From Oscillospiraceae bacterium (GTDB taxonomy: Bacteria > Bacillota > Clostridia > Oscillospirales > Ruminococcaceae), in the NCBI GenBank assembly GCA_009778115.1, contig WRKL01000001.1:1-64000 (forward strand): DNA of 64,000 nt, in the 5' to 3' direction. The position numbers and the translations under genes are program-made. Positions within the stretch are counted from its first letter, which is position 1, and each line of letters opens with the position of its first letter. Below, piece by piece: positions 3,437 to 60,454 of the stretch. The notes under the pieces were generated by a model, which worked only from the letters and a program-made list of their open reading frames with translations, did no database searches and was not told where the DNA came from.

Positions 3437-3598
3437 TAGACCTCCTCGGAAATTAAAACGTGATGTATGAACACAGATGATTTCTCGTCAAACAAGGCAA
3501 TTTTGACGAGAATATCCTGGATATTTGAGGATAAATTAACACCGTGTGACGGAAAATCTTCCGTTCATACGTTGCGAAGTGGTTTTCGAGGAGGTCTA
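3437..3598. mobile_element. Copy A of the ~162-bp MITE-like repeat. It has TIRs TAGACCTCCTCG/CGAGGAGGTCTA and TA flanks.
   Basis: Near-identical sequence recurs at 21033-21195, 29721-29863 and 60293-60454, and partially at 7636-7690. It has perfect 12-bp terminal inverted repeats. It has an internal 10-bp hairpin TCTCGTCAAA...TTTGACGAGA. Confidence 0.8.
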
Positions 3599-3620
3599 AT
3601 ATATTAAGGAAGTGTACATA

Positions 3621-3887
3621 TTGGATATCGAACAGATTCGCCATGAACTGGATTGTATCGACAATGAATTACTCCGGTTGTTTGAACAGCGTATGGCTCT
3701 TGCCGAAAAAGTTGGGCAGTACAAAAAAGAATATTCGCTTCCCGTTATTGACAAAGAACGCGAGGCGCAAGTACTGAAGAGGATGAGTGCAAGTGTTAAT
3801 CCGAAGCTTGCGGAATACATAAAACCTCTGTTCATATCTCTGTTTGAGGTCAGTAAAGCTTATCAAAACAAAATTATTTCTACATAG
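3621..3887 (+). CDS. Chorismate mutase (AroQ class, small helical type)
   Basis: The block IRHELDCIDNELLRLFEQRMALAEKVGQYK is typical of the AroQ N-terminus. A TTG start with AAGGAAG sits 9 nt upstream. The track ORF begins at GTG 3612, only 2 nt after the SD. Confidence 0.7.
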   Translation: MDIEQIRHELDCIDNELLRLFEQRMALAEKVGQYKKEYSLPVIDKEREAQVLKRMSASVNPKLAEYIKPLFISLFEVSKAYQNKIIST

Positions 3888-3908
3888 CTTGCAAGAAAGG
3901 AGCCGGAT

Positions 3909-4628
3909 ATGTTTATATCAGAATGGTGGGAAGGTTTAAGCGCTATACAACAAATATTTGCCGGTTTGGCAATACCGTCCACAGTAATACTGCTGGTTCA
4001 AACAATAATGATGTTGTTCGGTTTAGGGTTCGGACAGGAAGCTGATATTACAGATACATCAGCTTTTTCTGACGGTGATTTCGAACCCGCCACAGGTGCC
4101 GGCATAGAGTTTGACGGCGAAACAGCGGATTTTGGAGCCGCAGAAACGGCACAACCGCATCCGGATTCATATTATGACGACGGTGTGACGGGGATGCGTT
4201 TGTTTACGGTGCGCGGAATAGTAGCTTTTTTGTCGGTGGGCGGCTGGATAGGAATCGCATTGATCGATTTGGGTATGTCACCGGTTCCGGCCGGTGTGCT
4301 TGCTTTTGCCGCGGGAGTTCTTTCGCTCTTATTTGTAGCGGCAATATTCAAATGGTCGTCCAAACTGCAGGAAAGCGGAAATATGAACATAAACCGTGCG
4401 GTGGGACATACGGCACAGGTATACATCACAATTCCGCCTGAAATGCAGGGGCGCGGCAAGGTTATGGTAAAGTTTGACGGACGTCTTACCGAATTGGATG
4501 CGGTCACCACCGAAAACCGGTCTTTTAAACCGCAGCAAACCGTAAAAATTGCGGAAGTTTTAAGCGAGGGTCTGATCCGTATAGAAGCCGTCAGCATAAA
4601 TTCTAAAGACAAATCAGCGGTTCATTAA
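3909..4628 (+). CDS. NfeD-family membrane protein (YuaF-like) with a C-terminal OB-fold
   Basis: It has N-terminal transmembrane helices and a C-terminal beta-rich OB-like tail (VMVKFDGRLTELDAV...). It sits immediately upstream of a flotillin gene, which is the conserved NfeD-flotillin pairing. Confidence 0.65.
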   Translation: MFISEWWEGLSAIQQIFAGLAIPSTVILLVQTIMMLFGLGFGQEADITDTSAFSDGDFEPATGAGIEFDGETADFGAAETAQPHPDSYYDDGVTGMRLFTVRGIVAFLSVGGWIGIALIDLGMSPVPAGVLAFAAGVLSLLFVAAIFKWSSKLQESGNMNINRAVGHTAQVYITIPPEMQGRGKVMVKFDGRLTELDAVTTENRSFKPQQTVKIAEVLSEGLIRIEAVSINSKDKSAVH

Positions 4629-4690
4629 TCTGTGATCACATAAGAATATAAAAAGATTTTTCTAAATAATTATAAAGGAGATTATTAATT

Positions 4691-6142
4691 ATGTTTTTTT
4701 TGAACCTGAACACGGCAACCGAAATTAGGGGCGGCACTATGATAATAGCTATGGTAGTAGCAGCGTTGGTGGTTTTGACCATGATTATGTTTATCGTAAG
4801 TCGTTATCGTAAGTGTCCGTCGGATAAAATTATGGTTATTTACGGACGGGTCGGCACAAACAAAGACGGCTCTACCCGGTCGGCAAAGTGCATTCATGGC
4901 GGAGCCGCTTTCATTATGCCGGTTTTTCAGGCATATGCGTACCTTGATCTTACTCCTATTTCGATAAATGTGGATTTATCTAACGCGCTGTGCCGCCAAA
5001 ATATCCGTGTCAGTGTTCCGTCCAGATTTACGGTTGGTATCAGTATAGAAAACGGGATCATGCAAAATGCCGCCGAGCGTTTGCTGGGACTTAGACTAAG
5101 CGAAGTTCAGGAACTCGCCAAGGACATAATTTTCGGGCAGCTTCGTCTTATCATAGCCACTATGGACATAGAAGAAATTAACACCGACCGCGACAAATTT
5201 CTCGAAGCTGTTTCATACAATGTGGAAACCGAATTGAAAAAGATCGGTCTTCGCCTTATCAACGTTAATGTTACCGACATTACGGATGAGTCAGGATATA
5301 TCGAAGCTCTGGGTAAGGAAGCCGCCGCTAAAGCTATCAACGATGCTAAAATGAGTGTCGCTGAAAAGAATCGCGACGGTTCGATCGGTGAAGCTTTGGC
5401 ACTCAAGGATCAACGTATTTCGGTTGCCCAATCCAACGCCACCGCTATTGAGGGTGAAAACACATCCAAAGCCGCCGTAGCTCAATCTGACGCTATCCGC
5501 CGCGAAAAAGAAGCGGAAGCTTTACGCCGCGCTACAGTAGCTGAAAAAATCGCCGAAGCCAAAGCACTCGAAGAAGCCTACGCCGCCCAAAAAACGGCGG
5601 AAGAAGTCCGCGCTGATCGTGAACTCGCAACACAGCAGGCTGATGTTATCATCAAAGCAAAGGTCGAAAAAGAACGCAGAGAAATCGAAGCCGAAGCTGA
5701 AGCCGAGCAAACACGCCGCCGCGCAAAAGGTGAAGCGGATGCTATTTTTGCCACCATGGAAGCGCAGGCACGGGGAACGCAGGAGATTTTGCAGCGTCAA
5801 GCGGAGGGGTTCAAAAAAATAGTCGGAGCAGCCGGCGGAAATTCCGCGGATGCAGTCCAGCTTATGGTTGTGGATAAAATCGAGGATCTTGTAAAAACTC
5901 AGGTCGAAGCTGTCAAGAATTTGCAAATCGACAAAATTACGGTGTGGGATTCCATGAGCGGTGAAAACGGATCGCCCACTACCGCAAACTTCCTGTCGGG
6001 TATAATGAAAGCAGTGCCGCCGCTCAATGAAACCATGAAAATGGCCGGAATCAAAATACCCGAATTTTTGGGCAAAGAAATTCCCGCAGGAAAAGAAATT
6101 CCCGCAGGAAAAAAAATTCCTGCGGAAGAAGTTAAAGATTAA
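4691..6142 (+). CDS. floT: Flotillin-like SPFH/band-7 protein (FloT-like)
   Basis: An SPFH domain follows an N-terminal transmembrane segment. There is a long Ala/Glu-rich coiled coil. The C-terminus carries KEIPAG x3 repeats. The RBS AAAGGAG is present. Confidence 0.8.
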   Translation: MFFLNLNTATEIRGGTMIIAMVVAALVVLTMIMFIVSRYRKCPSDKIMVIYGRVGTNKDGSTRSAKCIHGGAAFIMPVFQAYAYLDLTPISINVDLSNALCRQNIRVSVPSRFTVGISIENGIMQNAAERLLGLRLSEVQELAKDIIFGQLRLIIATMDIEEINTDRDKFLEAVSYNVETELKKIGLRLINVNVTDITDESGYIEALGKEAAAKAINDAKMSVAEKNRDGSIGEALALKDQRISVAQSNATAIEGENTSKAAVAQSDAIRREKEAEALRRATVAEKIAEAKALEEAYAAQKTAEEVRADRELATQQADVIIKAKVEKERREIEAEAEAEQTRRRAKGEADAIFATMEAQARGTQEILQRQAEGFKKIVGAAGGNSADAVQLMVVDKIEDLVKTQVEAVKNLQIDKITVWDSMSGENGSPTTANFLSGIMKAVPPLNETMKMAGIKIPEFLGKEIPAGKEIPAGKKIPAEEVKD

Positions 6143-6169
6143 AATCTAGCCGGATTATCAAAAACTTTC

Positions 6170-59163: not shown

Positions 59164-59176
59164 ACTTATCCAAAAC

Positions 59177-59437
59177 CTAAATTCCCGCGCTATACACGCT
59201 GACCTTTTTCCGGCTTGCACCCATACGCTCATATTTTACTTTTCCGTCAATTTTTGCAAACAGCGTATCGTCCGAACCTCGTCCTACGTTTACTCCGGGA
59301 TGAATTTTCGTGCCGCGCTGACGTACCAAAATATTCCCCGCCAACACATACTGACCGTCCGCTCTTTTGGCTCCCAGCCTTTTGGATGTGCTGTCACGTC
59401 CGTTTCGCGTGGAACCCATACCTTTTTTATGCGCCAT
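59177..59437 (-). CDS. rpmA: 50S ribosomal protein L27, with no N-terminal propeptide
   Basis: [16 protein letters not shown]...[12 protein letters not shown] matches the L27 signature. A GGAGG RBS precedes it. The start is trimmed from the track ORF. Confidence 0.9.
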
Positions 59438-59813
59438 TATTTTCATCCTCCCTTTTCGTTTCTTTTGTTTCTTTCGGTTCTTTTTTCGATTTTTGTTTCG
59501 CTGATTCAATCGCATCTATCCGTACCAATGAATACGGCTGTCTGTGTCCTTTGGTCCGTTTGTAGTTTTTTCTGCGCTTGTAGGTAAATACCGTTATCTT
59601 TTTTCCTCTTCCGTTTTTCAGCACCCGCGCTTTAACTTCCGCTCCCTTGATAAAGGGTGTTCCCGCTTCTAATCCGTTTTCTCCGGCAAGCACTGAAACT
59701 TTGTCAAAAACAACATCGGTTTCCTTTTCTGCATCCAGCTTTTCGATGAACACTTCATCGCCCACACGCACTTGATACTGTTTTCCGCCGGTTTCAATAA
59801 CCGCGTAGTTCAT
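59427..59813 (-). CDS. rplU: 50S ribosomal protein L21, with a Lys/Glu-rich C-terminal tail
   Basis: [21 protein letters not shown] is the canonical L21 N-terminus. It overlaps rpmA by 11 nt. Confidence 0.85.
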
Positions 59814-59954
59814 TTTACATATTCCTTCTTTCAAATTAGGGCTCGCAATAAAAAGGTGACATAAGTCCGATTAGAAACCGAACCGACATTCTTAACTTTT
59901 TTAGTTTACACAAAGCAAATTCTAAAAAATCATACCTTTTATTAGCGGCGAAAA

Positions 59955-59996
59955 TTATGATACCACACTTTTTTTAGTTTGTCAACGAAAAATTTG
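59955..59996 (-). promoter_or_regulatory. Putative sigma-A promoter for rplU-rpmA-obg, followed by a ~140-nt leader
   Basis: The minus strand reads TTGACAAACTAAAAAAAGTGTGGTATCATAAT. This gives a -35 TTGACA, a 17-nt spacer, and an extended -10 TGGTATCAT. Confidence 0.4.
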
Positions 59997-60292
59997 CAAA
60001 TCAATCCGTCGTGAGCAATTTGTAGAATGAATTGCCCGGAAGATGTTTTTGAATAATTTCGTTTGCTCATTCAAGCCCGTCAAATAAAGGGGTTTTTGAA
60101 GCGGCAAAAAACCAATCGTCCCCAAAAACACAGAGAAAAGCACCCCCTGATGTGGTATACTGTTTTTGTTATGAAAACAAACCGAAAGGGCGGGCTTTAT
60201 TTCTATCATTGTATCACAAATTAATCTGTTTGACTATAGCGAAATTGAAAAATTAGGCGATCTCGAAAGATTAGATTTGGCTTTCGACAGAA

Positions 60293-60454
60293 TAGACCTC
60301 CTCGAAAACCACTTCGCGACGTATGAACGGAAGATTTCCCGTCACGCGGTGTTAATTTATCCTCAAATATCCATGATATTCTCGTCAAAATTGCCTTGTT
60401 TGACGAAAAATCATCTGTGTTCATACATCACGTTTTAATTTCCGAGGAGGTCTA
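60293..60454. mobile_element. Copy E of the MITE-like repeat (reverse orientation). It directly abuts an IS transposase fragment.
   Basis: It has the same TIRs (TAGACCTCCTCG / CGAGGAGGTCTA). Confidence 0.8.

Follow-up and report, generated by a model that had tools for sequence, protein, structure and literature searches.

The stretch of DNA analysed here, positions 1 to 64,000 of the Oscillospiraceae contig WRKL01000001.1 (assembly GCA_009778115.1), is called the window below. It has a G+C content of about 43% and carries Firmicutes housekeeping genes (srtB, noc, truA, trmFO, lysS and rplU). At gene boundaries of the window lies a short repeat element, which an earlier note made from the sequence had placed at five loci. 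These five loci were read and aligned. They hold one and the same element, in four full copies plus a 5′ fragment, a repetition that greatly exceeds chance. Indeed, the end motif TAGACCTCCTCG, with at most 2 mismatches, has 10 matches in the window as compared to 1.76 expected, and none of 100 shuffled sequences reached 10. The internal palindrome pattern has 4 matches as compared to 0 expected. Compared with copy 1, the full copies show 94-97% identity, or 84% for the one carrying an internal deletion (29721), and their flanks differ. A repeat finder recovered the same family, with arms of 165-167 nt at 94-96% identity for three copies and of 118 nt at 94% for the deletion copy.

Copy 1, a full one, occupies positions 3435-3600 of the plus strand, direct repeats included (core 3438-3597). 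Its neighbours are srtB (2150-2959) on one side and the gene of chorismate mutase (about 3612-3887) on the other, all three being co-directional. Copy 2, also full (21032-21197, core 21035-21194, minus strand), is located at the trmFO/truA junction and has one degenerate end, AGGTCTCCTTG. Copy 3 (29719-29865, core 29722-29862, minus strand) is bordered by lysS, which stops at 29897, and by a 270-aa gene starting at 29691; a 19-nt internal deletion removes its second small hairpin. Copy 4 is again full (60291-60456, core 60294-60453, minus strand). On the plus strand, each of the four cores is flanked by AAT on both sides. The 5′ fragment (7636-7686, plus strand) is an old one. It corresponds to core positions 1 to about 50 with about 84% identity, is preceded by AAC and lies between the divergent ComEC-like MBL gene (6452-7471, minus strand) and noc (7820-8695, plus strand). 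Five copies in 64 kb correspond to a density of about one per 13 kb.

The core measures 160 bp and has the form AGACC...GGTCT. Its left end reads AGACCTCCTCG, or AGACCTCCTCGG when written longer, and its right end CGAGGAGGTCT; these terminal inverted repeats are perfect in most copies. Perfect ends of 12 bp had initially been described for all copies. They are observed in three of the four full copies, whereas in the copy at 21034 one end, TAGGTCTCCTTG, contains 3 mismatches. Moreover, the inverted repeat is not limited to 12 bp. The arms are imperfect inverted repeats over about 54 nt each, making nearly the entire element an imperfect palindrome. Only the copy at 3437 has a perfect 10-bp internal palindrome; each of the other three contains one mismatch in it.

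Only one open reading frame (ORF) crosses the element, with a length of 44 codons. It has no ribosome-binding site and deletions break it in several copies. A peptide product was ruled out because of the missing ribosome-binding site and of these frameshifting deletions. The element is non-coding and shorter than 300 bp, as are bacterial MITEs (miniature inverted-repeat transposable elements).

Distribution of the family and signs of mobility

The family was searched for beyond the window. The internal 22-mer common to all full copies had no match in 185,579 species-representative genomes, and a scan of the same genomes with the end pattern gave one chance match only, inside a high-GC coding region. 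Viral contigs gave no match in three scans, and PLSDB plasmids none by blastn. A pattern search of the JGI metagenomes found the family only in Ga0099364, on seven contigs. Matches at loci L006, L007 and L010 were discarded as chance. A search of the protein database, with the translated 44-codon ORF as query, then gave three more copies, in JGI metagenome 3300002469. In this metagenome the ORF is annotated as hypothetical proteins P0241-P0243 (L013 416-548, L014 1867-2025 and L015 from 729). The element therefore yields spurious small-protein calls, these three JGI "proteins" of 44-52 aa being translations of the element. L002 and L013 overlap at 100% identity, showing that Ga0099364 and 3300002469 hold the same organism. 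Together, the two metagenomes contain at least 14 further insertions. With those of the window, this amounts to about 19 distinct insertion sites having unrelated flanks. For this count, L003 was merged with L004_1, and the window copy at 60293 and that of L009, which have a 240-nt flank in common, were taken as one. Overall, the family is new, and it is known so far from one uncultured Oscillospiraceae lineage. A MITE family is thereby added to a poorly studied lineage.

The earlier note had mentioned assembly artefacts as a reason why the copies might not be conserved beyond the window. The source of the window is a metagenome-assembled genome (MAG), in which a chimeric repeat could arise, and repeats break contigs. 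Five of the metagenome contigs indeed terminate within the element, which is the expected behaviour of a multi-copy repeat; repeats as dense as this one (about one copy per 13 kb) break up metagenome assemblies. However, the copies carry their own point changes, deletions, unique flanks and direct repeats. They are also present in three independent assemblies (NCBI MAG, JGI Ga0099364 and JGI 3300002469) and are therefore not assembly artefacts, an explanation to which we give practically no weight.

Several observations point to a mobile element. A 73-bp derivative consisting of the arms only is found at two loci (L001 2256-2328 and L004 3703-3775). The two derivatives have an identical internal junction and each is flanked by its own 3-bp direct repeat. 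The occurrence of this arms-only form at two loci suggests that the ends suffice for spread. Unique internal deletions that keep both ends were also observed, at window position 29721, L005 4770 and L004 2485. The nearest available relative, ENA ERZ27257348 (locus L011), has a LysS 74% identical to that of the window and shows the same succession of genes (M23 peptidase, S41 peptidase, greA, lysS and the gene after it). There, the spacer following lysS is 9 nt long and is devoid of the element, as compared to 205 nt in the window; this relative is too distant to give a base-precise empty site. The trmFO-truA synteny is not conserved in the ENA relative (L012). There, two nucleotidyltransferase/HepT-like toxin-antitoxin pairs (3907-4612 and 6439-7075) bracket trmFO, and truA does not follow. 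Copy 4 recurs in L009 together with its adjoining 240 nt (96% identical), after which the sequences diverge completely; orthology is not established by this similarity.

As described by Delihas, bacterial MITEs measure 100-200 bp and have inverted ends and 5′-TA-3′ termini; they give a long hairpin transcript and gene-end fusions (PMC2229807). The anatomy of the element is that of a standard bacterial MITE. It belongs to an ordinary kind and forms an undescribed family, distinguished by its A-W-T 3-bp duplication and by a strong outward ribosome-binding site at both ends. From these data we infer that the element is very probably a MITE. This agrees with the earlier proposal of a non-autonomous, MITE-like element, the family being absent from the reference collections searched.

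Traces of further events were noticed beside some copies. An orphan partial end, AAT-AGACCTCA, is located at 29876-29886 on the minus strand, 10 nt upstream of the ATT repeat flanking copy 3, and is possibly the remnant of an earlier copy. At L005 14345-14371, an orphan end TAGACCTTCTCGG is accompanied by a scrambled stretch. Such orphan ends stand 10-15 nt upstream of the left end of a full copy. Both may have been left behind by earlier copies or by an aberrant transposition, and suggest that insertion may occur beside existing copies. The copy at L013 387-546 has both ends changed alike at position 7 (AGACCTACTCG / CGAGTATGTCT), which is the only double-sided change of the family. This could be the mark of a sub-family, or one end could have been corrected against the other.

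Target duplication and the proposed transposase

Flanking sequences were tabulated over 8 nt on each side for 14 left and 16 right ends, including 13 complete sites. Position +2 is T in 16/16 cases and position +1 is A or T in 16/16. On the other side, position -2 is A in 12/14 cases and position -1 is A or T in 12/14. The bases at -1 and +1 are identical in 12 of the 13 complete sites; given the base composition, the probability of this by chance is about 7e-4. When the sites are re-partitioned as A-W-T / AGACC...GGTCT / A-W-T, a perfect 3-bp direct repeat appears in 11 of 13 (ten AAT or ATT, one TTT). The two remaining sites, ACT/ATT and GAT/AAT, have one mismatch each. The TTT site, TTT-core-TTT, is that of L015. 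Two fragments (window 7636 and L005 14373) have C instead of T before AGACC.

The earlier note had seen TA on both sides of each full copy and had linked this to TA-targeting transposases, as known for IS630/Tc1 elements and some IS5 subgroups. TA is literally present on both sides, but the duplicated unit of these copies appears to be 3 bp long (AAT on the plus strand). With matching outer bases in 12/13 sites, the TTT/TTT site and the C variants, the flanks do not support a TA duplication, nor, consequently, the IS630/Tc1 assignment. A duplication of 3 bp (A-W-T) fits them.

We nevertheless weighed the possibility of a Stowaway- or RUP-like MITE, GACCTCC...GGAGGTC, moved by an IS630/Tc1-mariner transposase with duplication of TA. 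TA is found at both ends of every intact copy and the surroundings are AT-rich, as with many Tc1-type targets. RUP, which like IS630/Tc1 elements duplicates TA, provides a precedent in Firmicutes (PMC2229807). However, this model needs a non-palindromic 6-nt target, AATAAT/ATTATT, in 12/13 sites, the palindromic AATATT/ATTAAT never being seen. A 3-bp duplication explains the same hexamer pattern with no extra assumption. In addition, the TTT/TTT site of L015 and the two C fragments would require three independent mutations of the "TA". Duplication of TA by an IS630/Tc1-type enzyme thus appears quite unlikely.

The comparison with RUP is instructive in other respects. RUP is a MITE of 107 bp which IS630-Spn1 mobilises in Streptococcus pneumoniae (PMC2229807, PMC3049150). 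Both are Firmicutes MITEs that measure about 100-160 bp, lie between genes, have inverted ends and 5′-TA-3′ termini and give a long hairpin transcript. In contrast to the present element, with its 3-bp repeats and no known partner, RUP duplicates TA and has ends matching those of IS630-Spn1. The collections searched revealed no sequence similarity between the two.

A 3-bp duplication of A-W-T type has a counterpart among IS5 elements. Han et al. reported that bacterial IS5 elements, like the eukaryotic Pangu group related to them, make a 5′-ANT-3′ duplication of 3 bp, PIF/Harbinger elements duplicating TWA (PMC4482050). In the present family, 10 of the 11 perfect repeats are A-W-T, in agreement with ANT. 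The A-W-T repeats, together with the ANT duplication of bacterial IS5, favour an IS5-type rather than an IS630-type assignment. The IS5 subgroups, mentioned second in the earlier note, are therefore the better fit (PMC4482050). Judging from the flanks, IS5-type (Tourist-like) movement is somewhat more probable than not. The element shares with Tourist-like, IS5 and PHIS elements a short non-coding sequence, inverted ends, a 3-bp A-N-T duplication and deletion derivatives that keep the ends (PMC4482050). It differs from them by a central base restricted to A or T (with one TTT site), by ends starting with AGACC, and by an arm similarity of about 54 nt, far beyond typical IS5 inverted repeats. 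In addition, no IS5-family transposase with matching ends was found here.

According to the favoured account, the element, which itself encodes nothing, would be moved in trans, by cut and paste, the DDE transposase responsible being encoded at another place in the genome. This enzyme would cut A-W-T with a stagger of 3 nt, so that a direct repeat of 3 bp (AAT/ATT) would remain on either side. The likeliest partner would be an IS5-family (PIF/Harbinger-related) transposase, and an IS5-family partner insertion sequence (IS) would be expected to carry AGACCTCC ends.

Several points weigh against this account. IS5-family ends usually start with GG or GA, not AG. The window, the 15 loci, the 185,579 reference genomes and the viral contigs were searched for a transposase gene with these ends, and none was found; nor did they yield the full-length IS with matching ends that the earlier note proposed to look for. 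No precise filled/empty pair was found either. Apart from proteins of the NCBI MAG, to which the TrmFO and LysS of the window are 100% identical, the closest relatives of these flanking proteins reach at most 65% (TrmFO) and 74% (LysS) identity. Because of this, the duplication was deduced solely from the direct repeats, and duplication of TA at a tandem AWTAWT target is formally possible. Finally, the copies diverge by 3-7%, so that activity need not be current. Taking these points into account, we estimate the probability of a MITE family with a 3-bp A-W-T duplication, most likely moved by an IS5-type transposase, at about 0.75. The A-W-T duplication provides a specific clue by which the IS5-type transposase responsible could be traced. 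None of these findings overturns current understanding. In the literature searched, the end sequence of the element was encountered in unrelated primers only, with no transposon context.

An IS1-family, InsA-like ORF located beside the copy at L001 5864 was examined as a possible partner. This 106-aa ORF (L001 5493-5813, minus strand), 51 nt from the MITE copy, corresponds to the N-terminal zinc-finger/helix-turn-helix part of IS1-family transposases (NF033558, E = 8e-16), and no catalytic part follows it. It was ruled out, being a fragment not flanked by the element ends, and probably derives from an IS that has no relation to the MITE. Duplications made by IS1 measure 8-9 bp, which also speaks against an IS1 partner.

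Gene ends and ribosome-binding sites

The copies are found in very short gene-boundary spacers, either intergenic or at the 3′ end of a gene, as had been noticed from the outset. Two window genes, trmFO and the ORF at 60452-61105 (minus strand), end in the element. The trmFO gene reads 20 nt into copy 2, so that its last six codons, LDLLGN, and its TAA stop codon (21176-21178) are element sequence. These residues fall in the C-terminal tail of TrmFO, which is naturally variable. Gene ends are thus rewritten by the element, the final six residues of TrmFO being element-encoded. The same TAA stop of the element is used by a NuoE-like gene (L004 55-570). The ORF 60452-61105 and the gene at L004 855-1547 stop at a TAG composed of the T of the duplication and the AG of the core.

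At both ends, the element carries the outward ribosome-binding-site motif AGGAGGT. This motif is complementary to the canonical 16S rRNA 3′-end. In the polysaccharide operon of L004, three copies occupy three successive gene junctions. One of them (2485-2607) sits between a native GGGGA site, which it has displaced, and the ATG of the pyruvyl-transferase gene (2608). The GGAGG of the element is located 4 nt before this ATG, and the Pfam match of the gene starts at residue 17. At L004 3776, a GTG directly follows the element end, again with GGAGG 4 nt before the start. At L005 832, the ATG comes 7 nt after the GGAGG of the end. In all, two or three loci have an element GGAGG 4-7 nt before a gene start. 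With the other copies, including the four of the window, either the next gene has a ribosome-binding site of its own or 30-110 nt separate it from the element. The idea that GGAGG could provide neighbouring genes with a ribosome-binding site is supported: judging from the spacing, it can serve in this way before the starts at L004 2608, L004 3776 and L005 832. Such use would be an occasional co-option, with no general function demonstrated. These outward sites offer a small testable example of a selfish element tolerated between a ribosome-binding site and a start codon.

This arrangement suggests how the copies may persist. They would survive in short AT-rich gene-boundary spacers since insertion there would be tolerated. 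Two features of the element could help. First, the TAG made by the T of the duplication and the AG of the core, with further stop codons, would close most reading frames within 34 nt. Second, the outward AGGAGGT at each end would be able to replace a displaced ribosome-binding site.

A more elaborate role may be envisaged, in which the two ends act as a Shine-Dalgarno/anti-Shine-Dalgarno pair and make the element a portable module for translational coupling. Termination in the left arm, which offers TAG at 1-3, TAA at 18-20 and TGA at 32-34, would cause the ribosome to melt the stem and to free the AGGAGGT of the right arm, where translation of the next gene would re-initiate. As a "translationally transparent" cassette, a selfish MITE could in this way settle inside operons without polar effects. 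The left-arm ACCUCCU does pair with AGGAGGT within a 19-bp stem. Moreover, three upstream genes stop in or at the left arm (trmFO, ORF 60452-61105 and L004 55-570), and two or three starts lie 4-7 nt past the right-end GGAGG (L004 2608, L004 3776 and L005 832). However, most copies are 30-110 nt from the next start, and the gene concerned has its own ribosome-binding site. Furthermore, ends abutting a start amount to 3 of about 38, roughly as expected from randomly chosen short intergenic spacers. Coupling would be an adaptation of the MITE compatible with IS5-type movement rather than opposed to it, and we regard it as unlikely. If true, a coupling cassette would represent a design principle not described for bacterial MITEs in the searched literature.

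Possible RNA-level roles and other repeats

The earlier note had also proposed a structured small RNA or a terminator family. More generally, the family could be kept for a role at the RNA level, its long hairpin acting as an RNase III site, an mRNA stabiliser, a small RNA or a terminator. Folding and covariance were examined. In the window, the gene-sense strand folds as a single long hairpin of -74.3 kcal/mol (z = -10.5), as compared to -54.4 kcal/mol for the opposite strand. The strand gap is 12-21 kcal/mol in 10 of 11 copies, the 73-bp forms included, and 2 kcal/mol in a single deletion derivative. This gap can be traced to the consensus arms, which contain 7 G-U pairs as compared to 1 A-C. 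In addition, transcripts of Correia and ERIC repeats undergo processing of this kind (PMC3049150, PMC2229807).

The variation between copies does not follow this asymmetry. The covariation term of RNAalifold is unfavourable (+1.41), with a double change in 1 of 62 pairs. Among the differences from copy to copy, about 9 preserve the sense pair and about 9-10 disrupt it (a partly manual count). The 7-versus-1 split of transitions has a two-sided p of about 0.07. No Rfam family matched the element, either at the gathering threshold or at E<=1, and no terminator-like or promoter-like motif was seen within it. Copies occur in both orientations, as stated earlier, when read on the plus strand, but all four full window copies are co-directional with their flanking genes (n = 4, not significant). 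Over all sites, 10 copies run in the direction of the genes, 5 run against it and 4 are ambiguous. This tally is not significant and places the four co-directional window copies within chance. Selection at the RNA level, suggested by the strand asymmetry of about 20 kcal/mol, is thus backed neither by copy variation nor by the orientation tally, and was rejected. The asymmetry is intriguing as a weak sign. The proposal of a small RNA or terminator found no support in these data, and we consider an RNA role of any kind improbable.

Two further families resemble the element. Correia/NEMIS repeats of Neisseria are about 155 bp long, have inverted ends and TA termini, lie at gene boundaries, are co-transcribed as a long hairpin and carry expression signals at their ends. 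However, Correia ends carry promoter elements, whereas those of the present element carry a ribosome-binding site and no promoter motif. Sequence and host phylum also differ, and the duplication here is 3 bp. The element is not a Correia repeat: its pattern is absent from the 185,579 reference genomes, those of Neisseria included, and its host is an Oscillospiraceae MAG. ERIC/YPAL repeats of enterobacteria are imperfect palindromes of 127-168 bp at gene ends, into which upstream genes can read. Orientation-dependent RNA effects have been reported for them, whereas neither orientation bias nor RNA-level conservation is shown here.

Other repeats were also noticed. Directly downstream of copy 4, a block of 240 nt (window 60051-60292, minus strand; L009 5576-5815) is 96% identical between the two loci. 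It contains a promoter-like sequence, TAGTCA-17-TACAAT with TG, and a terminator-like hairpin (60149-60131), and has no Rfam match. This block is a candidate small RNA gene or other mobile module. A second MITE-like repeat of about 112 bp, unrelated to the first, has inverted ends ATACTAATCCCA...TGGGATTAGTAT and is found at window 41818-41933 and L003 6977-7094. The window copy and that of the Ga0099364 contig are 99% identical, with different flanks. A repeat of about 46 nt, AAAAATCAAGTGAAA..TTTGATA.ATGG.TTTTACGC..ATTTTTT, has three intergenic copies, at 44107-44152, 44537-44585 and, inverted, at 22775-22823. Its copy at 44537 is bracketed by a 34-nt inverted repeat (44510-44543 / 44576-44609). 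Finally, a segment of about 90 nt is shared at 80% identity between L001 7372-7463 and L002 37-129 / L013 1028-1120, and possibly represents a further repeat family.

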